A stretch of DNA of 64,000 bases from Candidatus Omnitrophota bacterium (lineage in GTDB: Bacteria; Omnitrophota; Gorgyraeia; Zapsychrales; Zapsychraceae), in the NCBI GenBank assembly GCA_029261065.1, contig JAJDCB010000006.1, forward strand, positions 284-64,283. Reading direction: 5' to 3'. A program made the position numbers and the translations under genes. How positions within the stretch are numbered: the first letter of the stretch is position 1; each line of letters starts with the position of its first letter. Below, one piece after another: positions 3,864 through 21,400 of the stretch. Below the pieces are notes generated by a model. That model saw only the letters and a program-made list of their open reading frames with translations. It was not told where the DNA came from and did not search any database.

Positions 3864-4316
3864 TTACTTAATAATCACATGCCGAACATCTCTCACTTGT
3901 AAAAACTCTGCTCGCGTGTATGTCTGCTTTTTTGCAATCCATGGCAATAGTAGGGCAACAATTACAAAACACATAACAGAAATCGTTATAACTTTTCTTT
4001 TAAAGGGTTGGGGACATTGTTTTGTCCCAAAAGTGACGGCTTTTATCCAGTTCCAGTGCAATATTAAATGAACGATTAAAACAATCAAAAAACCAAAGGC
4101 AATCCAGAAATGAATCTCCCCCCATTCATGACGTGTTAGTCCCATAAAGACATCAATTGTTTTTTCAATCCCCCTACCGCTCCCTCTTAACAACATCTCA
4201 ACACGTCCACTCCCCGGAGGTAAAATAAATTTTAATAATAGCCCTGTGGAAATCATCAACATAAAAACCACGAAACTTATCGCATCGATAACAATATTCC
4301 AAACATTTCGTTTCAC
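3864..4316 (-). CDS. integral membrane protein, unknown function
   Basis: 150 aa with about four hydrophobic helices (FVVFMLMISTGLLLKFIL, IAFGFLIVLIVHLILHW, VMCFVIVALLLPW). Confidence 0.45.
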   Translation of the reverse strand: MKRNVWNIVIDAISFVVFMLMISTGLLLKFILPPGSGRVEMLLRGSGRGIEKTIDVFMGLTRHEWGEIHFWIAFGFLIVLIVHLILHWNWIKAVTFGTKQCPQPFKRKVITISVMCFVIVALLLPWIAKKQTYTRAEFLQVRDVRHVIIK

Positions 4317-4328
4317 GGAAGCTCCTTT

Positions 4329-5492
4329 TTAGTCTCTTGTCATCTTTGCTGATATTCCAATCGGCGTTTGATATTTATAAACAACAATGTAACTAGATGC
4401 AATAAAGGTTAAAATTGTAACAAGTTGTATCAATTGTGCGGCTTCCATACTGATATGATTTAATTCAAGCGCTAATATAGCCACCAAGAGTGAGAATTCA
4501 CTTAATTGCCCCAGTCGTATTCCCGTCTCTTTGGCAAAAGAGATCTTTTCTCCAATAAAAACGAAGGCCTGTTTAAAAACCCAAGGTTTCATAAAAATAA
4601 AAATCACGGCAAGGATAACCCCTGGAAAAAGAATATTTTTCATCACCAACAAATCAAACTTTGCTCCCAACGTAAAAAAGAATAAAACTAAGAAAAAATC
4701 TCTTAAGGGTTTTAATTGATCTGAAATAAAACGAGCAATAGGATGTCTCGCAAGAACTACGCCAGCAAAGAAAGCTCCTGTCTCATAAAAAAGACCCATA
4801 CTGTTTGATATCATGGCAAGACCACAACACCAGGCTAGTCCCATAACTAATAAGGCCTCATGAAGCCGTTCAATACTCAACAACACCTTTCTTAAAATAT
4901 AATATTCAACAATAAGAAGAATGCCGATAAAGACGACAAGCTTAAACGATAAAATGGTAAAACTCAATATCGCTCCGTCAGGGGCATTTAGACATCGTAT
5001 AAAAGCAAGCACGGCGATAGCCAACAAATCTTCTAACACTAAAATTCCGATACAGACCTCTCCCATTCTCCTTTGATGCAGATCTGTGGTGGGTAATAAT
5101 TTTACAACTAAAATCGTACTGGAAAACATCAACGCCAGACCAATACAAAGGCTGTCTATGATACTAAAATGGAATGCAAAGGCAAAAAGGGCCGCAATCA
5201 AAAAAGACACGAGGCAATTAACAAAGGCCACCAATGAAACCTTCCTAAATAGTTTGATTAGTTTTTGAGGATGTAAACATAGGCCAGCTAAAAATAAGAG
5301 AAGCGTAATACCAAGATGCGAAATCGTTTCTATAAATTCCACATTTTGAATCCATCCAAGCCCCCATGGTCCAATGAGAATCCCACTAAGAACATAGGCG
5401 ATAATAATAGGCTGTTTAAAAATAATCGCCAGGTACGACAACACAGCTGTTGTTAAAAGAAGAATACTTAAGTCTAAAATAAATCGTTCCAT
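4329..5492 (-). CDS. cation:proton antiporter (CPA2 / Kef-NapA type Na+/H+ exchanger family)
   Basis: 387 aa and polytopic. The N-terminus LLLTTAVLSYLAIIFKQPIIIAYVLSGILIGPWGLG is typical of Na_H_Exchanger (CPA2) proteins. Confidence 0.7.
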   Translation of the reverse strand: MERFILDLSILLLTTAVLSYLAIIFKQPIIIAYVLSGILIGPWGLGWIQNVEFIETISHLGITLLLFLAGLCLHPQKLIKLFRKVSLVAFVNCLVSFLIAALFAFAFHFSIIDSLCIGLALMFSSTILVVKLLPTTDLHQRRMGEVCIGILVLEDLLAIAVLAFIRCLNAPDGAILSFTILSFKLVVFIGILLIVEYYILRKVLLSIERLHEALLVMGLAWCCGLAMISNSMGLFYETGAFFAGVVLARHPIARFISDQLKPLRDFFLVLFFFTLGAKFDLLVMKNILFPGVILAVIFIFMKPWVFKQAFVFIGEKISFAKETGIRLGQLSEFSLLVAILALELNHISMEAAQLIQLVTILTFIASSYIVVYKYQTPIGISAKMTRD

Positions 5493-5509
5493 GTTTTAAA
5501 ATCCCTTAT

Positions 5510-6274
5510 CTAAATGATTCCACTTAACCAAACACCTGCCAAATAAGCAAGAAAGGCGGCACTTCCTCCGATACACAATGTTTCTAATCCTGATATATAC
5601 CAACGATAGTTGATAAAGCGAGCTTTCACGGCTCCGACACAGAAAAATGCAACGCCTGTCATCAACGCACTCACAAAATAGGGATCCACATTTGTTTTTG
5701 GAAACATCCATTGATATACAAAAACCAATAAAGGAATAACACCAACAATCATAAATGCAAAAAAGGTTGATAAGGCAGCCTTCCAGGGGTTAGGCCCCTC
5801 AAGAGCCATCCCAAGCTCTTCTGTCAGCATCGTATCAATCCATGTTTTAGAATCAGAAGTAATAATATTAACAACTTTTTCAAGATCAGCACCTTCAAAA
5901 CCTTTGGAAGCAAAAATTTGCCGGATTTCTTCTCGCTCTCCTTCTGGAATGACCTTGATATGAATCTCTTCTTCTTGTCTGGCCTTCTCGCGCAGCTGTT
6001 CCTCAGCACGTGTTCCTAAAAAGTTACTTGCCGCCATACTAAACCCATCTCCAATTAAATTCGCCATTCCAAGTATAATGATAATATGACTTGATAAACC
6101 AGCCCCCGCCACACCACTCACAACCGCAAACGTTGTAACAGCACCATCAATGGCCCCATAAATAAAATCTTTTAGATAACTATGCTTAACGCCATACTCA
6201 AGCCTTTCTCTTACGGCCAAAGGCGTATGCGACAATTTCAATGATTGTTTAAGATTATGCTTTTTTGATTTCAT
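5510..6274 (-). CDS. VIT1/CCC1-family iron/manganese transporter
   Basis: YGAIDGAVTTFAVVSGVAGAGLS is the VIT-family signature. There is a central coiled/acidic segment and a C-terminal group of three TM helices. Confidence 0.7.
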   Translation of the reverse strand: MKSKKHNLKQSLKLSHTPLAVRERLEYGVKHSYLKDFIYGAIDGAVTTFAVVSGVAGAGLSSHIIIILGMANLIGDGFSMAASNFLGTRAEEQLREKARQEEEIHIKVIPEGEREEIRQIFASKGFEGADLEKVVNIITSDSKTWIDTMLTEELGMALEGPNPWKAALSTFFAFMIVGVIPLLVFVYQWMFPKTNVDPYFVSALMTGVAFFCVGAVKARFINYRWYISGLETLCIGGSAAFLAYLAGVWLSGII

Positions 6275-6547
6275 TTTTATTAGTTTTAATTTTTTATATA
6301 AATCTTATAAATCAAATAAATATATGTGACAAGAAAAATACTTCCATAACAATACCACTCTAAACTTAAAATTGCAGGCCATATCTTTGCGATCAATAAA
6401 GCACAAGCCAATACACAAATTTTAAGAATCCCAACATCCCAAACCGTCATCTTTTTTATTTTTTCTTCAGCCCATTTGAAATAACTCATTTTAGCCCCCC
6501 TTTTTTATACAAACATTATATCTCTCAACTTAGCACCTTTCATGATT

Positions 6548-6748
6548 TTAACCTCTGATGATTTTTCTGACCCTATTTTTCCCTTGCTTTTTAAGATTAA
6601 TAATTTTATCTCGCAAAACAGCTGCCATTTCATAATTTTCCACCTTAACGGCATTGTCTATTTGTTCTTCTAAATCAAAAAGCTGTTCTACCTTTTCTAA
6701 CTCTTGCTTTATCTGAGGATCAAACTTATTCATATCATAAAGTTTCAT
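6548..6748 (-). CDS. UVR-domain small protein
   Basis: The 66-aa ORF ends in a UvrB/UvrC-type UVR motif (YEMAAVLRDKIINLKKQ). Confidence 0.5.
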   Translation of the reverse strand: MKLYDMNKFDPQIKQELEKVEQLFDLEEQIDNAVKVENYEMAAVLRDKIINLKKQGKNRVRKIIRG

Positions 6749-6750
6749 GA

Positions 6751-7059
6751 TTAACCTCCTCTCGCCGTATAGGTTTCAAGACATCTCAAAAATTTGTAAA
6801 CTCGTTTATCTAAAATATAATAATAACGAATATTATTATCTTTATCACACGCCAACACACCAACATTTTTCAAAGCTGTTAGATGTTGGGAAACCGTTGA
6901 TTGCGCCACTTTAAGTTTCCTTTGAATACTTCCAACTGAAAGTCGCTTTTCATTAATTAAAACCATTATAATTCTCAACCTTACTGGATGAGCCATTATT
7001 TTTAGCATCCGTACAGAAAACTCAATATTATGTAACCTTACTTTCCTCATGATTCTCAC
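6751..7059 (-). CDS. ArsR/SmtB-family metalloregulator (HTH)
   Basis: MLKIMAHPVRLRIIMVLINEKRLSVGSIQRKLKVAQSTVSQHLTALKNVGVL is the canonical ArsR wHTH. Confidence 0.8.
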   Translation of the reverse strand: MRIMRKVRLHNIEFSVRMLKIMAHPVRLRIIMVLINEKRLSVGSIQRKLKVAQSTVSQHLTALKNVGVLACDKDNNIRYYYILDKRVYKFLRCLETYTARGG

Positions 7060-7423
7060 GCGCTCCCGTCATGTGACGCGATAAATTTTGATCAAGGTGT
7101 TCTAAAACACCTGTAACATCTTTATCATTTGTCCTACAGACTTTAATCCCAGAGTGAATCAAACTATTGAGCATCTTTCCCTTAATTTCAGGACTAATAA
7201 CAGCATCAATGTGTTGTTGTCGCATGGTTTGACGTGGACTTCCTGCAAGATGATCATGATGATGCCGATGTTTATTCTTAATGGTTCTTAAATAATGCAA
7301 GTTTGTATCATAGATAACAAAATAAGGCACATGGGCAAAGTTAGGCACGACCCTTGCCTCGTAACCCTCATTTGTTTTTGTTGGAATGCAGACTCGCATC
7401 TTAAACCACCTTTGTAATTTCAA
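7028..7423 (-). CDS. NifX/NifB-like dinitrogenase FeMo-cofactor-binding family protein (Nitro_FeMo-Co fold). The likely true start is the internal MRVCIPT near 7399.
   Basis: MRVCIPTKTNEGYEARVVPNFAHVPYFVIYD... matches the N-terminus of NifX/NafY/NifB-C domain proteins. It overlaps the ArsR gene by 32 nt, which suggests an operon. Confidence 0.55.
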   Translation of the reverse strand: MKLQRWFKMRVCIPTKTNEGYEARVVPNFAHVPYFVIYDTNLHYLRTIKNKHRHHHDHLAGSPRQTMRQQHIDAVISPEIKGKMLNSLIHSGIKVCRTNDKDVTGVLEHLDQNLSRHMTGARENHEESKVT

Positions 7424-7524: not shown

Positions 7525-10500
7525 TTAAGAAAGAAGTAAGTCTACAATCAAAGGAAGGTGATCTGAGGCTACTTTATCGAGTTCTGTTTTAGAAACTTCT
7601 GCGTGGACAACGCTAACTTCTCCGCCAATAAAGACATGATCGATACGACCCACGGGATAATGACTAAACCACGTTGCCAAAGGACGATGATTATTTAAAA
7701 CATGTTGGGAGTCATGAAGTTTTTGGGTAATGCACCGGCATACGGGGGAACCTGGTAAGGCATTAAAATCTCCACACAAAATAATTGGACCTTCACAAGC
7801 ATGGTGTTCTAGCCAATCCGGTCCAAGTAACGCCTCAGCCTGCCTTAAACGCTCTAGACGTCGTAACCCAAGGTGCGTATTAATAACCTGTACTCTTATA
7901 TCATCAACGTTGATTGTAGTCCATATCGCCCCACGAGGCTCAAGATCTGGACGTCCAGGTAAAATAGGTAGTCGACCAGCATACATTGTTTTGATAGGAT
8001 ACCGACTAAGAATAGCATTACCATACCGTTCTTCTTCAATGCAAATAGCGGGATGAAAATGATACATCATCTCTAATTGTTTAGCAATAACATGGGGCTG
8101 GTTTATATCGCCTGTACGCGAACGATTCATATCTAATTCCTGCAGGGCAACAATGTCCGGTTCATGCCTGGCAATCACACGAGCAATCCGCTCTGGCGAT
8201 GTTTTTCCATCCATACCTCGACAACTATGAACATTGTAGGTCATGATACGAATCTTTTTCGTTTCTGGACTTATTGAAGAGGATTTCACAGAAAGCATAG
8301 ATTTCTTAGGTTTCATCCTTCCTAAATGTTGCAATGCTAGCTCCCTTAAATCTTTTGTCTTTAAATACGTTTTTTCTTTTGATAACGAAACAATATCTGC
8401 CGGAAGTAAAGTAAACGCATTTGTCTCCTCTGTTCCCACCCCTGCATGAGCTCCATTTTCAATAGGAAAACTTATCGGTGTCTGCCCTGGCCTCCATCCT
8501 GAAAAAGTAAAATCGCCAGCGTCTGGATGATGACAGATAGCAATCAAATCCTGTGTTACGTCGCTAAGATAAGGATGATTCTCTCCTAAAACTTCTTGTG
8601 CCTGCGCGGGTAAAATAAATTCGCCTCTTTCATTGAAAGCCCGCACTTGCCCCTCTTCTTCTGGAAACAAAACAAGAGGAATTTTGGCCTTATGTACAAG
8701 CTGACGAGAAAAAATGCATTTGTCTTCTTGATTTAGTTTCGTTGGCAGATAAATATTTCCCGTCGGCCCAATGGCCGTTACTGTAAGTTTATTCTGAGCA
8801 GCATGCTTTTGAGGAGAAAAAAGTTTTTGTAGATATGGACTTCCCAAATAACTTGCTCGATGAAATTGCACTCCTCGTCTTGTGGCTTGTTCTTGAAAAC
8901 ATTTATCCAGATCATCATCCAAACGTCCAGGTTCTGTTTTTTTGTTGGAATGCTTAAAAGCACTATAAACCTCTGTAACCGCCTCATGAACCCTTCTTCC
9001 ATATTCAACGGTGTAAGACAAGGTGTCTTCTTGACCATGGTCGGAATATATCCAAACATCGTAACTTCTTCGCGTAGAACTCATGGCATTTTTGTAAATA
9101 TCACCAATCGCTAAATCAATTCCTTTAAGAGCCCAATGAGCAAATTTTGTGGATGGTCCTCGACGATGGGCCTGTTCATCGAAGCCTAATAGATTTAAAT
9201 GAATAATAGGCAGACCTCTTGCAACATCAATCTTAACGCCAAGGGTTATCAGTTCTCGCAATAAAATACAAATCACAGCACGGGTGGGGACAAATTTAAA
9301 TTCTTTGATAAAGTTTTCTCCTTGAAACAATCCACCCAGAAAGTCAGCAAACCCTAAAACCAATTCCAAAATGATTAATAAGATAATACGTATCAAAGCC
9401 AAAAAATGGGTGAGGGCTAACACGATTAATTTAAAGACATTAACATCTTTCCATATCCGACTTAAACCCAATGAGACAGCACAAAAATGAGCTTCTTTGG
9501 CTCCCCCCTCATAAATATTCGAATAAGAACTCCCCCCCTCTAATAATCCTGTTTCCTGCTCTTTCAAACGTTGTTCAATTTTTTGGGCATCATCGCCATC
9601 AAACATCGTAAAAACTTTATTCTCGCTCTTGTCAAAATAAGAAAAAGCCGGAACAATTTGTTTAACACCATAAAATAATTCTCCTTGAACCGCAGGTGTA
9701 CTCGAAGGTAAACCTGTGTATAAAGGATAACTGTTATAATGTTGATTATTTAATAAACCTTTTAAAAAAGGCATTTCATTATTTTTAATAGCTTTTTGTA
9801 ATTGATGTCTCGAAAACCCATCAATTTGAATAAGAACCAAACCAGCCTTTGTCTCCTCCTCTTTGGAATGTGACAAATTAAGAAGACGCGCCGACCATTC
9901 GTGTTTATTGCACCATCGATTCCATTTTAAGATCCAATGCCTTTTTTTATCCTTTCTCGTCTTTTTAACATTAAAGGCCCTTTCACTAAAAGCGGCTTCA
10001 GAAGCATTTGTCAAATTTTTTGCCATATTCCATTCCGTCTTTATCCGAGACATACTGATTTTCCAAAGACTATTATGAATGTCTCGAGAGACAACGTTTC
10101 TGGACTTAACCTCATTGTAAAGGTTTATAACTTGCCCCGCGCAATGAACATTAGAATAATTCTGTGCTGATTGTCTCGCCGCCCTTTTTATCTTTTCCAT
10201 TTCAGAATGTGATTTGTGATAACACCAAGATAACGCTGATACAAATGTTTCTTGATGTTGTTCATGAATCAAACGGCCATTGAGACCGTCACGCAGGATA
10301 TCTCTGACACCTTGCGCATCAAGGGCAACGACAGGAACAGATGATGCCATAGCTTCTAAAAGAACAACGCCTTGCGTCTCACTCAACGAAGCAAAGGCAA
10401 AAACATTCATCGCATGATAACTATCCACTAATTGTTGATCTCTTAAAACGCCTGTAAAATGCAATCGATTTAAATCATCTTCCTTTAAAAAAACCTGCTT

Positions 10501-11241
10501 AATAACTTCTTGTGAAGGACCCTTACCCACAACAAGAAAATGAGCATCTTTTTTTTCTTTTAAAAACTGGGCGACGCATTGCGCGAGAAATTCTAAATTT
10601 TTCTCCGACGCCAAACGACCAACATGCCCCACAACAAAGGCCTCTTGAGGGATACCAAACTCTTCTCTTGTCTTTAAAACATCTGCATTTGCAAACTTAT
10701 TAGTATCAACTCCTGTTGGGATAACCTCTGTGGGCGTTTCAACACCTCGCGATTGTAAAATATCTTTAACACTACGCGTAGGAACGATAACCTGATCGGC
10801 AAGATTGGCATAGCCAGTAGAAAGCTCGATAACAAAACGTTTTATAAGATCATTATGAAAGGGAAGATAATGAATGTATTGTTCATACATCGTATGGTAC
10901 GTAAAAATGAGAGGAATGTTATATTGACCACTGAGACGAAGGGCTATATCACCTAATAAAAAGGGATGATGGCTGTGGACTATATCTGGTTTAAAATCGT
11001 GCATTAACTTTTCTAATAAACCTGGAATCGGAAGATTAATAGAAAAATCGGTATGATTACATTTTTGAATAGCTGGAATTCGAATAACGTCTTTTTCATC
11101 TCTCATCATCCCTTCAAAAGTAGGGGCGACAATAATCACTTGATGACCTTGTATCCTCAATTGAGAAGAAAAGGAACGAATAGATTCCTCTACTCCCCCG
11201 ACAATCGGCGTAAACGTATTTGTCATCATAAGAATTTTCAT
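7525..11241 (-). CDS. 1238-aa multidomain protein: N-terminal GT4 glycosyltransferase, central NPP-type (type I phosphodiesterase / nucleotide pyrophosphatase, alkaline-phosphatase superfamily) domain with a hydrophobic insertion, and C-terminal endonuclease/exonuclease/phosphatase (EEP) domain
   Basis: Residues 1-~400 are a GT4/GT-B glycosyltransferase (MKILMMTNTFTPIVGGVEESIRSF...). Residues ~460-900 carry LVLIQIDGFSRHQL, MPFLKGL, SSTPAV, HLNLLGFDEQAH and YSDHGQ, which match the PF01663 LVISLDGFR, MPNL, T-nucleophile and DHG motifs. A ~35-residue hydrophobic stretch (LIVLALTHFLALIRIILLIILELVLGF) sits in the middle. Residues ~960-1238 carry the EEP motifs (IMTYNVHSCRG, DIVALQELD, CGDFNALP, RIDHVF). 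Confidence 0.65.
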   Translation of the reverse strand: MKILMMTNTFTPIVGGVEESIRSFSSQLRIQGHQVIIVAPTFEGMMRDEKDVIRIPAIQKCNHTDFSINLPIPGLLEKLMHDFKPDIVHSHHPFLLGDIALRLSGQYNIPLIFTYHTMYEQYIHYLPFHNDLIKRFVIELSTGYANLADQVIVPTRSVKDILQSRGVETPTEVIPTGVDTNKFANADVLKTREEFGIPQEAFVVGHVGRLASEKNLEFLAQCVAQFLKEKKDAHFLVVGKGPSQEVIKQVFLKEDDLNRLHFTGVLRDQQLVDSYHAMNVFAFASLSETQGVVLLEAMASSVPVVALDAQGVRDILRDGLNGRLIHEQHQETFVSALSWCYHKSHSEMEKIKRAARQSAQNYSNVHCAGQVINLYNEVKSRNVVSRDIHNSLWKISMSRIKTEWNMAKNLTNASEAAFSERAFNVKKTRKDKKRHWILKWNRWCNKHEWSARLLNLSHSKEEETKAGLVLIQIDGFSRHQLQKAIKNNEMPFLKGLLNNQHYNSYPLYTGLPSSTPAVQGELFYGVKQIVPAFSYFDKSENKVFTMFDGDDAQKIEQRLKEQETGLLEGGSSYSNIYEGGAKEAHFCAVSLGLSRIWKDVNVFKLIVLALTHFLALIRIILLIILELVLGFADFLGGLFQGENFIKEFKFVPTRAVICILLRELITLGVKIDVARGLPIIHLNLLGFDEQAHRRGPSTKFAHWALKGIDLAIGDIYKNAMSSTRRSYDVWIYSDHGQEDTLSYTVEYGRRVHEAVTEVYSAFKHSNKKTEPGRLDDDLDKCFQEQATRRGVQFHRASYLGSPYLQKLFSPQKHAAQNKLTVTAIGPTGNIYLPTKLNQEDKCIFSRQLVHKAKIPLVLFPEEEGQVRAFNERGEFILPAQAQEVLGENHPYLSDVTQDLIAICHHPDAGDFTFSGWRPGQTPISFPIENGAHAGVGTEETNAFTLLPADIVSLSKEKTYLKTKDLRELALQHLGRMKPKKSMLSVKSSSISPETKKIRIMTYNVHSCRGMDGKTSPERIARVIARHEPDIVALQELDMNRSRTGDINQPHVIAKQLEMMYHFHPAICIEEERYGNAILSRYPIKTMYAGRLPILPGRPDLEPRGAIWTTINVDDIRVQVINTHLGLRRLERLRQAEALLGPDWLEHHACEGPIILCGDFNALPGSPVCRCITQKLHDSQHVLNNHRPLATWFSHYPVGRIDHVFIGGEVSVVHAEVSKTELDKVASDHLPLIVDLLLS

Positions 11242-11252
11242 CGGAACATTCC

Positions 11253-13604
11253 TTATTTGCCTTCTAGGCTTAAATACACCTCGTCGTCTCCTGCTTTTGG
11301 TATAACTTTTTTAAATCCCGGGAGTCGAATTTCAATAGATGGTGCCTCTTTAAACCACTGGCCCTTCCAACTCACTTTGATCTTATCTTCAAGAGGGATG
11401 ATAGAAATATCGATCACACCGTAAACCGTCGTGGCTGGCCCAAAGGACATCTTTTTTTTCTTATCTATCCATTCCTTTGCAACCCCAGAACACAAAATTA
11501 ATTTTTTGTCTTTTTCTTCTTCACGCACAAAACAATTTCTGATCATTAACACCCATTCCGATGCCGCCCATACATGTTGACCATCCCCCATACAACCACC
11601 CTTTGTATGAGGATGAATAGCCTCGGGCCATTGACCTGTAGGAGACGCTAATCGCGCCACAGTCTTCATTAAATCAAAACATCTGACATCCCCGTTTCTT
11701 AATAAGACTTGAGCAATATGCAAAGTTAAATAAGGATTTATCCCTGAATGAGTCATATCTTGAAAAAATCCACCATCAACAAAACAGTGCTCCATCAAAA
11801 AATGAACTGTATTTTTCACACGAATATCATGAGCAGGCCAAAGCATCAAAGGATAATCAACAGCAACAGATCCAATGGCGCCGGCATCCATCCTGCGATA
11901 AGGGGATGCAGGAATAATCGAACTCTTTAAACGTTTTTGAACCTTATCAAGACTCGCCTCAATGCTCGTCATAAAATCTTTAGATTCTTGATAAAAATGT
12001 TGGGCACGTTTTTCACTCCAGAACTCCTCGATTAAATGAGCCACAGCGTTTAAACCTGCCACACCCCAAAAATCATCCCAATAATAATAATCATTAGGTC
12101 CTAAATGTTCTGCACTAAATCCAGGAGGAAACAATCCTTTGTGAGATGACGTCGATTTGCCTTTAAGTCGTTTATGCATAATCCAACGACCTCCCAAATC
12201 TATAGACCTTCTCCAATCTTGAGGCAATGGTTCTCCCGTCATCTGACAATATTTCTCAATAATCCATAACGCCTCCCCATTGGAGTCCCACTCTCCATCT
12301 TGCGAAAGAAAGTATCCTCCTGACGTTTGTTTAGAAGAAAAACCATCCATCACTCGTCTGACACGTGATTTTAATCCTAAACACAACATCGCATGTAAAA
12401 TAAAGGCAGCATCACGAAACCAAAAACGTTTATAAGTATATGGTCCTGGATAAACCTCATTAGGTGAATGTAAAATAAGTGTTCTTACCGCTGCGTCAAA
12501 AATAAATTGAAAGCGATCATCCGGAATCTCTAGTTGACAAACGCCTTCTAAACTTTCCTTCCATCTTTCAACGGATGTTTGTTGAACAACTTGCCCTTCC
12601 TTTAACACACTATGATCTGCCTCATGAAATGCCCGTGCTAAAGCTGACTCATAAAGCAAATCTTTAAAAGTTGATTTCTTTTGCTTTTGAGATTTAAAAA
12701 GAGGAATCTCAACAACAACCTCTTGGCTTTGATGGGCTAATAGTTTAAATTGCGCGGCTGCTGTGGCTAATCCTATGTTGCATGTCATACGCCTATCTTT
12801 GTCTGAACAAGGCAGGCGATGAAAAACATCTCCTTTGCGATAATAAGAAAAAGCATGTTGATCGAAAACACGGTCAAGATGAACCACCTGACTATTGTTC
12901 ACCTTCCATCCCTTATCATTGTCTAACAAATCAATATCATGAATAAAACTCACCCCTTCAGGATTATATGGTCTTAGGGCCACAACCAAAAAGGAGTCTG
13001 ATAATGATGATGACCCTTTTAATTCTATGCGACAAAGGGGTGCCTCAAGCGTTCCTTTAACGAAGACCTTCGAAATAAGACATCGATCATTATCTGCCGC
13101 TTCTGTGGTTATACACAAACCTTCATCAAAGCTTAACGTTTGAGAAACAATAGGTAATCGAGAAGGAATAAGATGCTTTCCTGATTTATCAATGATCCAA
13201 CTATCAAGAGACCACCCATCAAAAAAAGGTGTCACAAGACCTCGAGGATCAACAATGGGAAACTCCTCGCAATCTGGAATGCCAACAGCTGTCCAATTGC
13301 GTTGTGTCAAATTAATATGCGTGATAGAAAAAGCGCGCGGCACAAAAGATTGATGATGAGGATCAAATTGACATTCCACCCAATAAGGCCAAACCCAATC
13401 AAGGTTATGTTGAATAGCCTGACTATTCATAAGTCCACGCGCATGTAACACGACGCCTGATCTTAATAATTGAACAGGGGCGGCAACCTCCGCGGGTTGA
13501 GCAAAACGTTCCAGTTTAGAAAAGATGTCAATCGGATCCAAAAAACCTCTTTTGCGAGCCGTACTTCTGACAATCATTCTCCAAGGTAACCATTTAAGCC
13601 ACAT
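11253..13604 (-). CDS. six-hairpin (alpha/alpha)6 glycoside hydrolase-like protein (GH15 glucoamylase/trehalase-like or GDE-like)
   Basis: At 783 aa, YKRFWFRDAAF resembles GH15 conserved region 1 (YTWTRDSGL). It starts 12 nt after the upstream fusion gene and overlaps the downstream membrane gene by 1 nt. Confidence 0.5.
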   Translation of the reverse strand: MWLKWLPWRMIVRSTARKRGFLDPIDIFSKLERFAQPAEVAAPVQLLRSGVVLHARGLMNSQAIQHNLDWVWPYWVECQFDPHHQSFVPRAFSITHINLTQRNWTAVGIPDCEEFPIVDPRGLVTPFFDGWSLDSWIIDKSGKHLIPSRLPIVSQTLSFDEGLCITTEAADNDRCLISKVFVKGTLEAPLCRIELKGSSSLSDSFLVVALRPYNPEGVSFIHDIDLLDNDKGWKVNNSQVVHLDRVFDQHAFSYYRKGDVFHRLPCSDKDRRMTCNIGLATAAAQFKLLAHQSQEVVVEIPLFKSQKQKKSTFKDLLYESALARAFHEADHSVLKEGQVVQQTSVERWKESLEGVCQLEIPDDRFQFIFDAAVRTLILHSPNEVYPGPYTYKRFWFRDAAFILHAMLCLGLKSRVRRVMDGFSSKQTSGGYFLSQDGEWDSNGEALWIIEKYCQMTGEPLPQDWRRSIDLGGRWIMHKRLKGKSTSSHKGLFPPGFSAEHLGPNDYYYWDDFWGVAGLNAVAHLIEEFWSEKRAQHFYQESKDFMTSIEASLDKVQKRLKSSIIPASPYRRMDAGAIGSVAVDYPLMLWPAHDIRVKNTVHFLMEHCFVDGGFFQDMTHSGINPYLTLHIAQVLLRNGDVRCFDLMKTVARLASPTGQWPEAIHPHTKGGCMGDGQHVWAASEWVLMIRNCFVREEEKDKKLILCSGVAKEWIDKKKKMSFGPATTVYGVIDISIIPLEDKIKVSWKGQWFKEAPSIEIRLPGFKKVIPKAGDDEVYLSLEGK

Positions 13605-14320
13605 TATTGCTCCTTTCTTTGTATTAAGCGAAATAGATAATAAAAGATCATAAAAACAAACAACACAATAATTAAAATCATCGGAGAACTAGGATTATAG
13701 GCTAAAACGCTTTCATGAAAATGTGTCAAAAGAATCGCCCAAAGGCCGATGGCTGTATAAGTAGCACCCAAAACGATGGTCATATTCAACCATGACCTTA
13801 ATCCCATGAGCCATCCCATAACAGAACCAACAACCGGTCCCGTCCCCCATAAAGGGAACAACACAAAAAGAAATAAGCCAGGCTTACCATACCGTCGAAT
13901 AGTCACAAGATTGGATTCAGCCCTTTTCATCGTTCGTTCCATAACGTTCATGACAGACTGCACAACTTTAAGGTATCGATGACTTAAAACAAAAAGAGGA
14001 TATAATATAAATACTACAATCGTATCGATTAATATATTAATGAAAAAATTACATACATGCCCAAGACCCAAAACATAACCAAAATACACGCCTGCTGGCC
14101 GCCCAACAACAAGGCGCATCCCCGTTAAAGAAACAACTTTCTGATAAATTTCGGGAAACCATAACCAACCTAAAACCAAATAACTAAGAAACAAAACAAA
14201 CAACGCAACACCTGTAAGAAATATACGTCCTTCCGGCGTTCTAATAAGCATCATCCAGACATATGTTTCTTCTATGGCGGTTGGTTCACTTGCAACAGCA
14301 TTATCATTTTTACTTTTCAT
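13604..14320 (-). CDS. polytopic membrane protein, unknown function
   Basis: 238 aa with about 6 TM helices. Translationally coupled to the GH15-like gene by a 1-nt overlap. Confidence 0.45.
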   Translation of the reverse strand: MKSKNDNAVASEPTAIEETYVWMMLIRTPEGRIFLTGVALFVLFLSYLVLGWLWFPEIYQKVVSLTGMRLVVGRPAGVYFGYVLGLGHVCNFFINILIDTIVVFILYPLFVLSHRYLKVVQSVMNVMERTMKRAESNLVTIRRYGKPGLFLFVLFPLWGTGPVVGSVMGWLMGLRSWLNMTIVLGATYTAIGLWAILLTHFHESVLAYNPSSPMILIIVLFVFMIFYYLFRLIQRKEQ

Positions 14321-14332
14321 GTTGTTTCTTTC

Positions 14333-15544
14333 TTAAGGAATTATGTCTGAACAGTCTCCAGAGGCTTCTCCATTATTAAAAAATATTATTTCTTTACCTT
14401 CATGTTTAAAAATAAAACTATCGCTTACATCTTTAATCAAAAACTTATAATCTTTCCAATTTGCTTTAGGCTCAACGGAAAACCTGATCATGTGTAATTT
14501 TAAATGATCCAATAGATAAAAGTCAGAAAGCCTTTTATTGAGATTATCCTTCGCATATCCTTTTACTTTAATGGTCTCACGATTACAATACGTTATCCGC
14601 TCAATCGCAAAACCTTTCGCATAACGATCCATCTCTTCTATCGCCTTACGACTTAATTGATGCATAAAACCTATTGTTTGATCTGTTTCTTCTACAGTAA
14701 AAACCACTCTTGGGTGTATGGATATCGTCACTTTAAGAAAATTTTCCTTTCGCTCCAATTTCCAATAAGGTTCACACAAAAATTCCACGCCTAAAAGCTC
14801 GCTTTGACATCTGGATTTTAAAACATTCCTTTGTTTATGTTCACCAAAAGGCGCGTCCAATTTTCTTTCAAGCACTTGCAAAAAAAGCTCTCGTTCGTCA
14901 TCATAATTATTAACTCTTACAATATTCCCCTTATCATAAATAATCTCTCGTTTGACATAACCATTAGGATGATATTCTCTGTATTCACCATCTCTTAAAC
15001 CATCCTTATAACTAAATTCTTCCCATATTGTTCCATCTTCATAATACGTTTCTGCAACCCCCTGTTCGTGCCCTTCATCATAATTAGCACTAGCTGCCAA
15101 ATTGCCATTTTCATAATAAACATTATGCACACCCACTTCCTTCCCATCTTCATAAAGGCCTTCCGCCTCCAAAGCGCCACTGTTGTAATACAATTTGTAA
15201 ATGCCATCGCGTTTATTATTCTTATATTCAAATTTAAGACGAAGAATACCGTCTTCACAATAATCCTGATAGAGACCTTCACGTTGCCCAGACTTGTAAA
15301 ACACCTCCATCTTCAATTGACCATTCTCATAATATTCTCTGTAGACACCATCATCATCGTCATCAAAACAATTTGTTTCAGACAGAAGCTCTCCGCTTTC
15401 ATAATATTCACGTCTATAACCATTCTCCTCAGTAACCTGCCCAACGCCCGATCCAAAAAATATTTCCGATATTTTTGGTTGTGCAAAAACATGGCTTGCT
15501 AATATCAGAGAAAAGGCCAAGCCGATATACAATATTTTTTTCAT
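14333..15544 (-). CDS. secreted MORN-variant-repeat (YwqK-like, PF07661-type) protein with an uncharacterised ~190-aa C-terminal domain
   Basis: Signal peptide MKKILYIGLAFSLILASHVFA. Repeated YxEYYENGQLK / YKLYYNSGAL / ETYYEDGTI units fill residues ~40-215. Confidence 0.6.
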   Translation of the reverse strand: MKKILYIGLAFSLILASHVFAQPKISEIFFGSGVGQVTEENGYRREYYESGELLSETNCFDDDDDGVYREYYENGQLKMEVFYKSGQREGLYQDYCEDGILRLKFEYKNNKRDGIYKLYYNSGALEAEGLYEDGKEVGVHNVYYENGNLAASANYDEGHEQGVAETYYEDGTIWEEFSYKDGLRDGEYREYHPNGYVKREIIYDKGNIVRVNNYDDERELFLQVLERKLDAPFGEHKQRNVLKSRCQSELLGVEFLCEPYWKLERKENFLKVTISIHPRVVFTVEETDQTIGFMHQLSRKAIEEMDRYAKGFAIERITYCNRETIKVKGYAKDNLNKRLSDFYLLDHLKLHMIRFSVEPKANWKDYKFLIKDVSDSFIFKHEGKEIIFFNNGEASGDCSDIIP

Positions 15545-15721: not shown

Positions 15722-16345
15722 TTATTTTAAAGGATACTTGCCTGCGGAGTTATTGGCAATTTTCTTTAAGGAGAATTCGGCATAACCAGCCAGAATTTCT
15801 TGAGTTTGGCGGGGTGGTGGGACAACAAAATATTGGGAAATAAGGGCGTGTGCCACTTCATGCGCGAGTACACCTAGAGTGACATTATCTAAGGAAAGGT
15901 AAATGGTATTATTCTCATGATAAAAGAACCCAATTTCATCATTATAAAAGAAAGCCTTCTCACCTTCATTAACGCCAAAGATACCTTTTAATTCCTTATC
16001 AAGATCTTTCTGTGTATCAAAAATCTTGATATTTGTATGAAAATCACTTATTTGAAGCCCTAATATCTGTGTGAGATTCTTGACAATTTCATCCATGCCT
16101 TCCGTTAAGATGACCTTAGGATCAGAGGATTGGCCACTCGCATAACTATCTGACAAATTAGCAACCTGAAAATCACGTAGAATCTGGTTTAAATCAACAT
16201 CATTTTGGCTATGGATGGAAAAGGAAAAATGCTGGCTCTCAAGCACGTTTGACTCTTTTTCAGCCAAACTTAAGGTGGGAAAAAAGCTTAGAAACATTAC
16301 GCTTATCGCCAGAAATTTAAATAATTTTAAGGACTTCAATGACAT
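15722..16345 (-). CDS. secreted putative zinc metallopeptidase-like protein (HExxH)
   Basis: Signal peptide followed by LGVLAHEVAHALISQY (HExxH) near the C-terminus. Confidence 0.4.
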   Translation of the reverse strand: MSLKSLKLFKFLAISVMFLSFFPTLSLAEKESNVLESQHFSFSIHSQNDVDLNQILRDFQVANLSDSYASGQSSDPKVILTEGMDEIVKNLTQILGLQISDFHTNIKIFDTQKDLDKELKGIFGVNEGEKAFFYNDEIGFFYHENNTIYLSLDNVTLGVLAHEVAHALISQYFVVPPPRQTQEILAGYAEFSLKKIANNSAGKYPLK

Positions 16346-16599: not shown

Positions 16600-18315
16600 T
16601 TAGAACTTTAGCTGAAATTCAAACCAAACATGAGCCCGATCTCCATCTTCTGACTTTTTACCTTGTGGAAATCCAGCTTCCACACGTAAGGCCAAATCAT
16701 CTTTGATGTTCACGCGCACACCAGCTCCATAACCTTTTAATGTCTCAGACTTTTCTTCTCCAGCAAGAGGTGTGTTGGTACCTGCATAACCAAAATCGTA
16801 AAAGATAACCCATTTTAAAACGTCATACAATTTTTCTTCTCGAAAGGGAACTTTTACGTCTCTTGATAAACCATAAAAGGGAAAAGACCATTCAAACGCA
16901 GTATAATATCCTTTATCTCCAGAATGTTCTGCAGGAGCATATGCTCGAACACTTGTAGGACCACCGATTTGAAATTGTTCGGAGGCGACAAGGTTATGAT
17001 TAGAAACCTGTGCAGAATTTTTCCAAAGAATATAGGATTCATATGGCATGGGATGTAAACGAAAGAAATGAAATCCCCATTTTTGAAATTTACCTCCAGC
17101 CCCTGCTCTTGAAGCTAAAGGATCTTTCGCATCCATGGAACCAAGAAAATCTGGAATCCCAACACCTAATTCGGTGGTGAAGATATTTCGTCCAAAGCGA
17201 TCATTAAAATCAAGATCTCCACCAAATTTGATAACCCTTAATTCATCATGAGATGTCTCAAGGCCTAGCAGATGATTCTTAATATCCTTGTAATCAAAAC
17301 CGGCATTAAGTCTTAACTCTAGATCATCCCGATAGATGACTTCTTTATTAATAAAAATTCCAGCTAAAAAAGCGTCACCATGGGCATCAAGGGCTTCAAA
17401 TTCTTTGACGAGATCTGTTTCCACATTCAATACGTAAAATCCCACATCAAATGTCTTGTTGACAGGAAACACATATCGTCCTTGGTAAAGTTCAAGGAGC
17501 GCACCTTCTGAATATTGTCCCTTTAGATACAAACGGTCATCGAACCCAAGCAAATTATTGTGTTCAAGAGTCCATGCAAAACGATCATTCTTAAGGAAAC
17601 GGGAAGCGTAATTATCGTATTCAAAACCCACATGAAAAGGAAATTGATCTTTAACATCTAAAACGAGATCTGTGGTTCCAGGTTCTTTTCCTGGGACAAG
17701 GACAATTCTAGCAGTTCGATCTGGATGTTCATTAATATAAACCAAGGATCTTTGCAGCGCAGAATAATCAAAGTATCCATAGGGTTTAAGATCGATATAT
17801 TCTCTAAACAGTGACGTTTTAAAATACTTGTTCCCCTCTACTGTTAAACTTCCTAATTTTCCTTCAATCACTTTAATGATCAAACGACCATTTTGAAGAG
17901 ATTGAGGTGGCACATAGGCGCGGGATGTTACATACCCTTGCGTTCTATATTCAGCTGTAATCTCATCGGCAATGGCCTGAATCTTTGTCATGGACAACTT
18001 TTGACCTTCATACGTCATGATCAGATTTTTTATGACATCATCTGAAAGGAGCGTTACATTCTCTACAACTATTTCATTGATCAGAACATTTGGACCAGCC
18101 TCCAACTCGGCCTCTTCAACAACTTCTTCTGTTTCTTTTAATTCCTGTTTTTTTAAACGTTGTTCAAACTCCTTAACTTTTTCCTGTTCTACTTTACGTT
18201 GCAGTGCACCACCAGCGGTTTCTGATGATGTGGGTTGTGCATAAACGATGTGATGGACTATAAAGAGAGAAAGTACAACACCTATCACTACAACAAACCC
18301 ATTTTTTCGTTTCAT
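16600..18315 (-). CDS. TpsB: ShlB/FhaC/HecB-family two-partner-secretion outer-membrane transporter (Omp85 superfamily)
   Basis: Signal peptide, POTRA-like region, and a beta-barrel ending in the terminal aromatic FEFQLKF. A strong SD (AAGGAGG) sits 7 nt upstream. Directly downstream of tpsA. Confidence 0.75.
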   Translation of the reverse strand: MKRKNGFVVVIGVVLSLFIVHHIVYAQPTSSETAGGALQRKVEQEKVKEFEQRLKKQELKETEEVVEEAELEAGPNVLINEIVVENVTLLSDDVIKNLIMTYEGQKLSMTKIQAIADEITAEYRTQGYVTSRAYVPPQSLQNGRLIIKVIEGKLGSLTVEGNKYFKTSLFREYIDLKPYGYFDYSALQRSLVYINEHPDRTARIVLVPGKEPGTTDLVLDVKDQFPFHVGFEYDNYASRFLKNDRFAWTLEHNNLLGFDDRLYLKGQYSEGALLELYQGRYVFPVNKTFDVGFYVLNVETDLVKEFEALDAHGDAFLAGIFINKEVIYRDDLELRLNAGFDYKDIKNHLLGLETSHDELRVIKFGGDLDFNDRFGRNIFTTELGVGIPDFLGSMDAKDPLASRAGAGGKFQKWGFHFFRLHPMPYESYILWKNSAQVSNHNLVASEQFQIGGPTSVRAYAPAEHSGDKGYYTAFEWSFPFYGLSRDVKVPFREEKLYDVLKWVIFYDFGYAGTNTPLAGEEKSETLKGYGAGVRVNIKDDLALRVEAGFPQGKKSEDGDRAHVWFEFQLKF

Positions 18316-18409
18316 GATAGCAACCTCCTTTCTGATAGACTTGATTCGATCAAGCCCCCCATAAAGGGGGCCTGATCTTGATACACATTTCTACTTCAAC
18401 TCTTTCCGA

Positions 18410-21400
18410 CTATCTCTTATCTTTCTTCCTTAACTGCTCCTCGATAAATTCATAGGCCCCTACATCCAACGTTAAATCATCAAAAGCAGACGCATCTGTT
18501 TCTGTGATGGGATGATAGGCATATAACCCAATCTTTTGTGCTGGTTCAACGCTGACAAATTGACTGGGTTCAAGGATTTCATAATAGACTCTTAACTCAT
18601 CAATCATATTCTCAAAAGTTTGTGGCACATTTGGGAATAAGATATCGAAAGGACCAACGGTGATAGGGTCAGCAATATTACCTGCTCTATCAACGATCCC
18701 ATCGGATGTGACAAAGAGTCCTATTCCAGGTCCATCAACAGTTTTAGTGGCCATTGCGGTCTCTAAAAATCCTTCTGTTGGAAAACCTGACATGTTATCC
18801 TCGGCATTAAAAGGAACAGAGACTGAAGATTGATAAATGCCATTAGACCCTAAGAGTCCAATGGGTCTTCCAGCCAAGATAACTGGTTTTGTCATATCAA
18901 CATAGTATGGTCCAACATGAACAGTGTCAGAGACAATAGCTTCTTCGATCCCTGCAAATGCTTTATCAAAGCCATTGCGATCTAACATCGCTTCACGGGC
19001 CGCAAGTATATGAAAATTCCAGTTGTCATTGTCAAAAAGTACAGGTAACGCGGTTGAGAAAACCCAATCTCCACTTGGAGTAAGGCGAACATCATAAGGA
19101 TCTCCATTGTTATCTGGAATGGTGAAAGAGTTGGTATCAAAGACATAACTGAAATCAAACATGGCATAGCCAAGATCGATTTCTTCTTCGGGTAACAATG
19201 TACCAACTTCTCCATTTGGTGCTTGTAGATCAATATGACGAGCAATGACATCGTAATCATTTGGGACAACACTTAAATCACCATCAACAATGGAACCCAA
19301 ATGAGATGTCATCTGGACATTACCGTTGCCAGCATCCACCAAGGCTAAAATGATGTCATCATTCGCTAAAATGGTCGCATCACCGTCGCTGGTATGGACA
19401 AGAGTGTCTTCCGCCATTTCGTACCCCTTATCGGCGGTGGCTGTATATTGATACAACCCTTCCCCAGCTTCGGGCAATCCCCACTCTACTTCAAAAAGAT
19501 CTTCGTTTGTCCAGATCGCAATATCATGTGACGTACTGTGAACATCGGATGGAGGATTAAGAACATCGCTCATCCTTTGTTGAATATAGATATTGCCACG
19601 TTGCAACTGAACAATGTTTTCATCAGACACTAAAACAATGTCCCCATGGCCAATGATAGGGGTAAAGAGTGTTAGATTTCCATGGACTAAAAGATCGATT
19701 AATCCACCAGGAGCGCCATTATAAATTTCATAGCCTCCTATCACCCCTGGGTTTAATCCAGGTTCGAAGCTTAGATTATCGACAATAAGATCACCCATGT
19801 TTTCTAATTGGATACCTCCACTTGTTCCATTATAAGCAGTCAGTGCATTTGCTGTGACACGTAAACCGCTGTTAGGACTTGTTCCGCTTATCCCTGTGTT
19901 GGCTTTAAGCATCAAGTTATTGGCATTCACACCGCCATCCACTTGATAAATTTCACCAAGCTTAGCTGTAATAAAAATATTATCTAAAGAATTTAGCAGC
20001 GCACCTGGTGTTGTACTAACGACATCAAAAGTAAAATCGATCACAGCATCATCAAAATCTGCATCGCCTAATCCATAGATGTCTTCCCATCCGTATCTAT
20101 ATCTTTCTCCATCGATGACAACATGATTTAACCCATCATCATTATATTGTTCCTCGGTATGATATAACCAAGCAGACATGTTAGAATTGTCATTAGGATG
20201 TACGTAGGTATTTGCACCTTGATTAAAAACGGTGTAGAGTTCGAAATAATCCAAAGGTCGATAAACTAATCCAGTCCCTTCTGTTTGAGATACGCCATCT
20301 TTACCAATATCTGGGCCTATGACAAATGGAACATATACTAGATCGTTATTTTGGTCTATGTCATAATAACCATAAGCACCTAACGCATAACCTCGAGTAT
20401 CTGTTATATATTCCCATTCGTATCTTAATAACTCATCGGTGTCATGAGAGCCTAGATAAACATTATTGCCAGCGAAGATGTCAATGACTCCTTCTTGAAC
20501 ATCGATTATTGTATTATTACCAACGGTATAATCCAACTTCGCAAATCCAAGAAAATTGTCCCCCTTTGTTGTTACTTCATTCATAGGAAGATGAGCCACA
20601 TGTCCTTCTTGGGTGATAACACTTACCTTGCCTCCTCTTAACTGTCCTCCTACTTCAATATCTTTATTCGCTAAGAGAAGAATCTCTCCGGCATCTTCAA
20701 TGAGAGCTTCTGCTTCAATGATACCTTCATTGTTGATGGCTTTATCAAAAACGCCTGAAAGGATCTTTGCTGTTAATAACACTTTTCCGCCATTAGCATG
20801 AATTGTTCCCAAATTTTTCACAGCTACATGAGCGTTGTTAGGGTTCAAGGTTGTCCCTTTATCAATGACAACATTGATAAGTCCTCTCGCATCGAGAGAT
20901 AACGTCATTGCTTCTCCAGAAGCTAAGACGACAGAACCAAGTTGTGCATTAATAATTCCAGTGTTCATGACACTTGCTCCTAGTAAGGCAACATATCCAC
21001 CAGGAGATGTTATCAATCCTTGATTAAGAACATAACTGCCTTGACCAGTAAAACGATGAATCCCGTCAATAAAGTCGCTGTAACTCATATCTAACGTTGA
21101 GGCGACAATTCCGGCGGCATCAACGGTACTTCCTGGTCCAAAAACAATTCCATTAGGATTAATCAAAAAAATTTGGCCGGTCGCTTCTAAGTGGCCAAGA
21201 ATAGACGAAGGATCTATTCCAACAACTTTATTTAAAGCGGCACTCGTAGAACTGGGTTGATGAAAAAAAACACCTTCATCCAAACCAATGGAGAAGTCTT
21301 TGTACTCAACGATCAATTTGTCAGAATTTTGATTTACATGAAGCTCGTTGGTTTGGGACCAATCAAAATCGGCATCGCCTGAAAATTTGTTTAGACCTTC

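Follow-up and report, generated by a model that had tools for sequence, protein, structure and literature searches.

A six-hairpin glycosidase-like protein family paired with a GT4 glycosyltransferase in a candidate bacterial module for glycolipid synthesis and turnover

A 64,000-nucleotide stretch of a Candidatus Omnitrophota genome (assembly GCA_029261065.1, contig JAJDCB010000006.1, positions 284 to 64,283; the whole stretch is referred to here as the window) contains three adjacent genes that encode a small membrane protein, a 783-residue protein predicted to adopt a six-hairpin glycosidase-like fold (p783), and a fusion of a GT4 glycosyltransferase with two phosphoesterase domains. With more than 2000 representatives at 50% identity, p783 is a large family; it is also unusually well conserved, at 50–58% identity between phyla, and is nearly always found with one GT4. 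The components belong to known enzyme classes, and the new element is the six-hairpin family. We read the module as one for glycolipid synthesis and turnover, a form of lipid remodeling at the cytoplasmic face of the membrane. This reading is tentative, and we rate its chances at a little below even.

The gene neighborhood was surveyed by scanning one genome per GTDB species, which found at least 492 relatives and from which 80 loci were kept. These loci come from at least nine phyla (Omnitrophota, Planctomycetota, Desulfobacterota, Gamma- and Alphaproteobacteria, Nitrospinota, Nitrospirota, Fibrobacterota, Sumerlaeota and Chloroflexota) and include Desulfobulbaceae, other Deltaproteobacteria, a complete Methylobacter genome and a Limnocylindria bin. 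In 72 of the 80, a gene for the same GT4 follows p783 at a distance of no more than 3.5 kb; of the remaining eight, four lie on contigs that end too early and four lack the GT4. Junctions between the two genes are often 4-nt ATGA overlaps. Such adjacency is far beyond chance. An earlier interpretation made from the DNA letters alone, referred to here as the sequence-only reading, had called for a neighborhood survey and had staked its unit on synteny in related genomes; the p783-GT4 order is indeed conserved across phyla. The invariant core of the module is p783 plus the GT4, while the parts for removing head groups, remodeling acyl chains and flipping lipids are interchangeable. The p783 homologs of the 80 loci share 50–58% identity with the window protein. 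Identity at this level in phyla as far apart as Omnitrophota, Gammaproteobacteria and Fibrobacterota points to strong constraint, to horizontal spread of the module, or to both.

In the window all three open reading frames were confirmed on the minus strand (Table 1), with the membrane protein transcribed first, p783 second and the fusion last. The sequence-only reading had placed the fusion first and had given 12 nt between it and the p783 gene; that spacer measures 11 nt (11242–11252). The 1-nt overlap it had noted between the p783 and membrane protein genes stands: the TAA stop of one and the ATG of the other have one base in common (TAATG), and the sequence AGGAG precedes this ATG by 6 nt. 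The layout supports an operon-like unit. The surrounding genes are also on the minus strand, and the GC content of the window is about 37%. Promoter and terminator consensus scans gave counts no higher than those of shuffled sequence, and the window has no Rfam match and no tRNA, so there is no sign of a riboswitch or other RNA regulation in it. The closest homologs of the window proteins are all from Candidatus Omnitrophota. For each of the three proteins the databases also contain an identical copy, from a 129.8-kb contig, and the source records assign the window proteins no names.

Table 1. Features of the three-gene unit and the adjoining gene, in window coordinates.
Feature	Position	Strand	Basis or remark
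Secreted MORN-repeat protein	14333..15544	minus	Pfam MORN_2; signal-peptide-like N-terminus
238-aa membrane protein, PF06695 (DedA superfamily)	13604..14320	minus	First gene of the unit
p783, six-hairpin glycosidase-like protein, 783 aa	11253..13604	minus	AF2 fold and conservation
Y391-x3-W395-x-R397-D398 motif of p783	12411..12434	minus	GH15 S1 signature spacing
E499, candidate general acid of p783	12108..12110	minus	α5→α6 loop (AF2)
E661, candidate general base (or nucleophile) of p783	11622..11624	minus	α11→α12 loop (AF2)
GT4-phosphodiesterase-EEP fusion, 1238 aa	7525..11241	minus	Confirmed open reading frame
GT4 domain (GT-B, retaining), residues 1–385 of the fusion	10087..11241	minus	Pfam and EX7E
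AP-superfamily (NPP/PhnA-like) phosphodiesterase domain, residues ~455–985	8287..9879	minus	Pfam, AF2, Foldseek
Hydrophobic insert of ~40 aa in the AP fold, residues ~601–640	9322..9441	minus	Kyte-Doolittle 2.75
EEP Mg-dependent phosphoesterase domain, residues 996–1238	7528..8256	minus	PF03372, 94.3 bits

p783 has no match in Pfam, NCBIfam or PADLOC. A word-indexed search returned more than 4360 homologs, and the family comprises 2026 cluster representatives at 50% identity, 421 of them with E ≤ 1e-30. Its close homologs, where named, are annotated as 'hypothetical protein' or 'GtrA family protein', and a literature search found no description of the module or of the p783 family. An AlphaFold2 (AF2) model built from 50 homologs (pLDDT 79.7, pTM 0.81) divides the protein into an N-terminal part of about 100 residues, a β-sandwich (~130–300), an (α/α)6 barrel (~345–692) and a C-terminal β domain (693–780); the modeled succession of β-sandwich and barrel is that of bacterial GH15 enzymes. 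Foldseek matches to the PDB are led by GH94 cellobiose phosphorylase (4e-15) and the GH15 structure 1lf6 (4.4e-15; TM 0.63 on the target, rmsd 5.7). Further down come two more GH15 enzymes (glucodextranase and dextran dextrinase), phosphorylases of GH65, a GH116 match and the part of cyclic glucan synthase that resembles GH94; E values throughout are 1e-15 to 1e-10. Because p783 has neither a signal peptide nor a transmembrane segment, it is predicted to reside on the cytoplasmic side together with the other soluble domains, which likewise lack signal peptides.

The residues that line the active site of GH15 enzymes have candidate counterparts in p783. The GH15 S1 signature of subsite −1, Y-x3-W-x-R-D, is present at the start of barrel helix 2, and each of its four residues is conserved in at least 90% of 93 diverse homologs. 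Profile alignment places the motif on YHLVWSRD of 1lf6 and YHAVWARD of 1ug9. Its spacing is identical to that of Y48-x3-W52-x-R54-D55 in Aspergillus niger glucoamylase, the sequence of which was checked and is 100% identical to PDB 3eqa. In GH15, the general acid lies in the α5→α6 loop and the general base in the α11→α12 loop, and residues of this type are also able to support retaining transglycosylation (PMC12446779). Barrel helices were counted in the AF2 model, from α1 (363–378) to α12 (676–692). The candidate acid E499 belongs to an S-A-E-H segment (497–500) with at least 90% conservation. The stretch that comes next aligns to residues 452–491 of 1lf6, which follow E438, the acid of that enzyme. 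The candidate base E661 is invariant in both diverse p783 alignments, and its spacing of 18 to W679 resembles the 17 between E400 and W417 of the A. niger enzyme. Both glutamates were equated with the GH15 acid and base by helix counting and weak alignments. The sequence-only reading had made its glycosidase assignment hang on the acid/base residues of a six-hairpin family, and candidate glutamates are present in both GH15 acid/base loops. By its model, p783 would resemble a GH15-type enzyme, either a hydrolase or a transglycosylase.

Sequence profiles do not place p783 within GH15. Searches of PDB sequences with phmmer and two family profiles gave six-hairpin enzymes (1lf6, archaeal GDE, GH125 and glucodextranase) as matches, none of them significant. 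Distant members of the family have sub-threshold Pfam matches to GH15, Bac_rhamnosid6H, GH95, MGH1-like, GH116, GH65 and Trehalase; the GH15 model PF00723 is matched by five of 51 such members with a best E of 0.0019, and in a separate scan the family member P0288 scored 19.5 bits against its 22-bit cutoff. p783 itself does not reach the PF00723 threshold, and an hhalign comparison of its profile with a fungal GH15 profile of 20 sequences gave a probability of 0.2%. The GH15-like WxRD region proposed in the sequence-only reading is therefore borne out by fold and motif and lacks a significant sequence-profile match. Because it combines a GH15-like predicted fold and candidate GH15-type residues with no GH15 profile match, p783 represents a separate new six-hairpin family.

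The hhalign runs, against A. niger glucoamylase alone and against the fungal profile, returned the same short match. It sets p783 502–529 on glucoamylase 306–333 through a 26–28-residue segment with P-x-D-x-YY-x4-W (probability <1%), a register that was rejected as it breaks the loop order set by the S1 motif. The motif in question, P-x-D-x-Y-Y-x4-W-x3-L, resembles GH15 conserved region S4 (YPEDTYYNGNPW) and by helix order lies in the S3 loop of p783. Convergence, or duplication of a loop motif within the pseudo-symmetric barrel, may account for it.

Few parts of p783 are as highly conserved as residues 1–100 (13305–13604), which have the consensus MWWKWxPWRF...LAIQHNLDWIWPYWVECQ. They are modeled as loose helices with pLDDT below 50 and also form the point at which GtrA is fused in other members. 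This extension may need a partner or the membrane in order to fold. A search for fusions among unusually long family members found GtrA only.

Two groups of known enzymes stand closest to p783. Like bacterial GH15 of clan GH-L (1lf6, 1ug9), it has an N-terminal β-sandwich, an (α/α)6 barrel and the S1 signature; unlike GH15, it carries an extra C-terminal β domain, as GH65 and GH94 do, and a unique, highly conserved N-terminal extension of about 100 residues; its pairing with a GT4 is obligate, and it is often fused to GtrA. The GH65 and GH94 phosphorylases of maltose, kojibiose and cellobiose are built, like p783, from a β-sandwich, a linker, an (α/α)6 barrel and a C-terminal β domain, and are among its top Foldseek matches (4e-15 to 1e-12). 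In sequence, only one sub-threshold GH65m match was found among 51 members. These phosphorylases have no base carboxylate, and phosphate binds at its site, whereas p783 keeps an invariant E661 in the base loop as located by helix counting, which would argue against a phosphorylase.

The partner of p783 in the window is a three-domain protein, and the tri-domain fusion described in the sequence-only reading was recovered as a GT4, a Phosphodiest-type domain of the alkaline phosphatase (AP) superfamily and an EEP domain. The GT4 domain scores above cutoff against Glyco_transf_4 (PF13439, 128 bits) and Glycos_transf_1 (PF00534, 102 bits), and E288 and E296 of its EX7E motif are invariant in 52 homologs. 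Its best NCBIfam match is α-monoglucosyldiacylglycerol synthase (NF049988, 7.5e-48, 164 bits), aligned over residues 1–382 and model positions 1–391 of 398. GlcNAc-phosphatidylglycerol synthase and then MshA come next, and sucrose-phosphate synthase is a far weaker match. The nearest PDB sequences are MshA, PimA and BshA. Weak matches extend to glycogen-synthase-type and processive diacylglycerol glucosyltransferase models (Dgs, 61 bits), and PglA is matched at 7e-4, as against 7.5e-48 for Mgs.

Phosphodiest (PF01663) is matched by the second domain at 34.7 bits (cutoff 23) over a stretch of only 60 residues. D474, T515, D688, H692, D734, H735 and H932 are invariant in 52 full-length homologs and by motif analogy probably represent the ligands of a bimetal center and a threonine nucleophile. 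A profile comparison with Xanthomonas NPP (2gsn) is weak (E 0.002). An AF2 model built from the window segment and full-length homologs (pLDDT 85.5) matched phosphonoacetate hydrolase (PhnA, 1ei6) at 3.8e-13 in Foldseek. Apart from the insert within this fold, the fusion has no strongly hydrophobic stretch. The insert keeps this character in all of two sets of 52 and 18 homologs, along with R, E and D residues that are conserved. As it is flanked on either side by assigned metal ligands, the insert cannot span the bilayer, and it is best read as a putative monotopic membrane hairpin or lipid-binding element. The third domain exceeds the 24.5-bit cutoff of its Pfam model, and N1003, E1035, D1158, N1160, D1227 and H1228 are invariant. 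Its PDB relatives are 4ruw, nocturnin and mannose-6-phosphatase 4c1r, and more weakly the sphingomyelinase β-haemolysin. None of the operon proteins has a metallophosphoesterase domain in Pfam. An anti-phage defense role was considered and set aside: no PADLOC model matches any of the four proteins, and a Pfam GT4-conflict model reaches 24.7 bits against a cutoff of 26.

The sequence-only reading had described the first gene product as a generic membrane protein with six transmembrane segments. About six hydrophobic segments are present, and the protein can be assigned more closely, as it passes PF06695 with 60.1 bits (cutoff 30.7). This family forms one branch of the DedA superfamily (Okawa et al., bioRxiv 10.1101/2020.12.18.423352). 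In the closest GTDB relative (locus L001) a PF06695 homolog is found about 570 nt upstream of p783. Elsewhere the slot immediately upstream of p783 is taken by GtrA in 23 loci and by VTT/DedA in 19, and GtrA is often fused to the N-terminus of p783 (for example, residues 3–116 of P0020). The termini of GtrA are cytoplasmic. Because different proteins occupy this slot in different lineages, the three families of small membrane proteins (GtrA, VTT/DedA and PF06695), each of which the literature connects with translocation of lipids or lipid-linked sugars, replace one another there. Their exchange gives independent genomic evidence that they do equivalent work in lipid translocation. In L043 (12219–13610) a VTT/DedA protein fused to a HAD-type phosphatase with a DLDGT motif directly follows p783.

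Other parts of the module vary as well. In the window and its relatives the GT4 and AP-EEP domains are fused, and in Proteobacteria, Desulfobulbaceae and Nitrospinota they are encoded by separate genes (about 429 and 800 aa) with 4-nt overlaps. A protein with an acyl carrier protein (ACP; phosphopantetheine-binding) domain and a PlsC-type acyltransferase domain is encoded between p783 and GT4 in 22–24 Omnitrophota loci, and patatin is found in 8–9 loci. GH1 genes lie just upstream in 5–6 Omnitrophota loci, and DUF3108 genes also recur nearby. In L009 and another 21 Omnitrophota loci (L002, ~12360–13840, is an example) the ACP-PlsC protein has an unusual architecture: a segment that reads by eye as an orphan C-terminal subdomain of an adenylate-forming (ANL) enzyme, with no adenylation core in the protein, followed by an ACP-like phosphopantetheine-binding domain, hydrophobic segments and PlsC. 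GT4 domains with a C-terminal α/β-hydrolase that bears a GFSLG serine motif occur in L002 (13704–15932) and L010 (12653–14917); these hydrolase domains, like the HAD-type phosphatase of L043, were read by eye and not through Pfam.

The assignment of the module to glycolipid synthesis and turnover starts from the conserved p783-GT4 pair, the exchange of three membrane-protein families in one slot, and the predicted fold, candidate catalytic residues and predicted cytoplasmic location of p783. It is further favored because the best match of the GT4 is a lipid glycosyltransferase, α-monoglucosyldiacylglycerol synthase; because the partners (GtrA, VTT/DedA, ACP-PlsC, patatin and α/β-hydrolase) handle lipids; because the AP domain carries a conserved hydrophobic insert; and because the logic of a phospholipase C coupled to a GT4 is known from PlcP-Agt. 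The steps of the proposed scheme are biochemical inference, built on domain anatomy, conservation and gene context that are observed. The NPP-type domain would dip into the inner leaflet through its hydrophobic insert and, together with the EEP domain, would remove phospho-head groups from glycerophospholipids to leave diacylglycerol, as a phospholipase C does. The fused retaining GT4 would then transfer a hexose from an NDP-sugar to this lipid, which would give an α-glycosyl-diacylglycerol. The PF06695 protein, or GtrA or VTT/DedA in other lineages, would redistribute the lipid between leaflets. p783 would act on the α-glycoside made by the GT4, removing or trimming the sugar for reversal or homeostasis; alternatively it may carry out transglycosylation, as its GH15 homolog dextran dextrinase does. 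Retaining GT4 enzymes make α-glycosides, and the GH15 family acts on α-glycosides. The pairing of a GT4 with a GH15-like protein pointed out in the sequence-only reading is in keeping with this, as a retaining GT4 stands beside a protein with a predicted six-hairpin fold and candidate GH15-type active-site residues. A stronger version of the proposal, in which p783 is a new GH-L-like hydrolase/transglycosylase family dedicated to membrane glycolipids and forms a physical unit with a GtrA, VTT/DedA or PF06695 scramblase or flippase, is possible, though we think it more probably wrong than right by a wide measure.

Several findings weigh against the glycolipid proposal. The profile links between p783 and GH15 are not significant, with E 0.04 for 1lf6 and an hhalign probability below 1%. 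The 164 bits of the GT4 fall far under the 400-bit equivalog cutoff of the monoglucosyldiacylglycerol synthase model. The AP-EEP part is missing in about half of the loci and no membrane partner was detected in 32 of 74, so neither head-group removal nor flipping is a universal step. GtrA and some DedA proteins are linked to polyprenyl-phosphate carriers and not to diacylglycerol lipids. A scan upstream of 68 loci found no Pho-box enrichment (mean best score 8.96, background 8.92) with an E. coli-type box, which has little power outside Proteobacteria.

The carrier lipids just mentioned are the basis of the first competing account. Many Omnitrophota have GtrA (PF04138) joined to p783 as a fusion, a DedA-superfamily protein takes the same slot elsewhere, and both families are tied to the translocation of undecaprenyl phosphate and its sugar-linked forms. 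The GT4 could accordingly work on an acceptor linked to undecaprenyl (pyro)phosphate in a polyprenyl-phosphate-linked sugar pathway, with the GtrA- or DedA-like protein flipping or recycling the carrier, the NPP and EEP domains cleaving its pyrophosphate or phosphodiester, and p783 trimming or recycling stalled intermediates, all in the service of cell-envelope glycan synthesis or carrier-lipid salvage. NPP enzymes are indeed pyrophosphatases and phosphodiesterases, and in L081 the fusion gene is followed after about 3 kb by a gene for the undecaprenyl-pyrophosphate phosphatase BacA. We nevertheless regard this pathway as unlikely. The GT4 matches transferases that act on diacylglycerol, phosphatidylglycerol and phosphatidylinositol far better than those that act on undecaprenyl-pyrophosphate sugars (PglA at 7e-4, Mgs at 7.5e-48); PlsC with ACP, patatin and α/β-hydrolase partners point to acyl-glycerolipids; and the 80 neighborhoods contain no recurrent priming phosphoglycosyltransferase, Wzx/Wzy or GT-C gene. 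The acyl-remodeling partners are left without explanation if the module makes a lipid-primed α-glucan or oligosaccharide, an improbable account in which the GT4 is processive, p783 controls chain length or transglycosylates, in the manner of the GH94 domain of cyclic glucan synthase or of dextran dextrinase among the GH15 homologs, and the phosphoesterases attach or remove phospho-substituents. Foldseek matches to cyclic β-1,2-glucan synthase (8rf0) and dextran dextrinase (9ju0), the capacity of GH15 residues for transglycosylation (PMC12446779), the weak matches of the GT4 to glycogen-synthase-type and processive diacylglycerol glucosyltransferase models, and the GH1 gene just upstream in 5–6 Omnitrophota loci would suit such a role. 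The processive Dgs model, however, scores only 61 bits, and the neighborhoods have no carbohydrate-binding module, branching enzyme or exporter as a recurrent member.

The sequence-only reading had itself leaned toward a cycle of soluble compatible solutes of the trehalose or glucosylglycerate type. The GT4 would form a glycosyl-phospho-intermediate that the phosphatase domains dephosphorylate, p783 would hydrolyze the product on osmotic downshift, and the membrane protein would serve export or import. A GT4, one or more phosphatases and a six-hairpin hydrolase do formally resemble SPS/SPP, GpgS/GpgP/GgH and TreT/trehalase; two distant p783 members give sub-threshold matches to MGH1-like mannosylglycerate hydrolase; and the nearest solved GT4 structures include two, MshA and BshA, that act on soluble acceptors. 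Against this stand the lipid glycosyltransferase as the best GT4 match, the conserved hydrophobic insert of the AP domain, and partners that are lipid enzymes and membrane proteins of the lipid-flipping type, not solute transporters. The phosphoesterases, moreover, are of NPP and EEP type, not HAD-type sugar-phosphate phosphatases as in established solute pathways, and are absent from half of the loci. A solute cycle fits the partners worst of the rival accounts, and we hold it to be hardly probable.

The glycolipid proposal has its nearest precedent in PlcP-Agt lipid remodeling, in which a phospholipase C is coupled to a GT4 glycolipid synthase (PMC4796936, PMC8231724). As in that system, a phosphoesterase would yield diacylglycerol at the cytoplasmic face, beside or fused to a GT4 that would make glycosyl-diacylglycerol. 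The differences are that the phosphoesterases of the module are of NPP and EEP type and are fused to the GT4, with no PlcP metallophosphoesterase partner; that the E. coli-type Pho box is not enriched; and that PlcP-Agt has no counterpart of the six-hairpin glycosidase-like partner, which is universal in the module. Among characterized families, alMGS-type enzymes (NF049988) score best for the window GT4, the homologs of which keep EX7E invariant, but the window GT4 carries two phosphoesterase domains and scores 164 bits where the cutoff is 400. The membrane protein passes the threshold for PF06695, one member of the DedA superfamily (DedA, VTT/TMEM41/VMP1, PF06695), and its slot is taken by VTT/DedA and GtrA proteins in other lineages; its translational coupling to a glycosidase-like enzyme is a context that was not found described in the papers searched.

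If the proposal is true, p783 would be a new enzyme family in a new route of membrane remodeling, used by environmentally dominant and poorly cultured groups such as Omnitrophota, Planctomycetota, relatives of cable bacteria, methanotrophs and Nitrospinota. The stronger version, with p783 and a scramblase or flippase as a physical unit, would mean that many phyla have an unrecognized glycolipid cycle, and it would give the orphan PF06695 branch its first concrete substrate context. The Methylobacter strain with a complete genome carries the module and is a tractable system for finding out what DedA-superfamily proteins move.

A link to phosphate starvation was considered and is unsupported, given the result with the E. 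coli-type Pho box and the finding that PhoA and a porin O/P lie beside the pair only in L083 and L084. In one Omnitrophota lineage (L083, 2255–5664) the region 2–6 kb upstream of the pair encodes an alkaline phosphatase of PhoA type and a porin that faintly matches phosphate-selective porin O/P. This layout does not recur in the other 80 loci, save for a 28%-identical porin match in L065.

The MORN-repeat gene ends 12 nt before the membrane protein gene that lies downstream of it, and a MORN-repeat homolog is found upstream only in the closest relative, L001; it may be co-transcribed with the membrane protein gene while remaining outside the conserved module. Just upstream of the operon, at 16600–21484 on the minus strand, is a two-partner secretion pair. 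Its TpsB transporter is of ShlB/FhaC type (571 aa) and contains POTRA and ShlB domains, and its TpsA protein (1024 aa) contains a TPS secretion domain. The pair is separated from the module by the MORN-repeat gene and by a gene for a 207-aa protein (15722–16345) whose N-terminus is hydrophobic and signal-peptide-like.

The fusion is directly followed, at 4329–7423 on the minus strand, by a cluster that looks like one for metal homeostasis. This cluster encodes a Nitro_FeMo-Co-domain protein (7028–7423) whose gene overlaps that of an ArsR/SmtB regulator (6751–7059), a protein of the VIT1 iron-transporter family (5510–6274) and a CPA2 antiporter with a MagA-like match (4329–5492). A DUF4405 membrane protein (3864–4316) is encoded about 3 kb downstream of the module. 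Another DUF4405 gene (L083, 7296–7733) stands immediately upstream of the p783 homolog in a 62%-identical Omnitrophota locus, and the association of DUF4405 with the module may be weakly recurrent.

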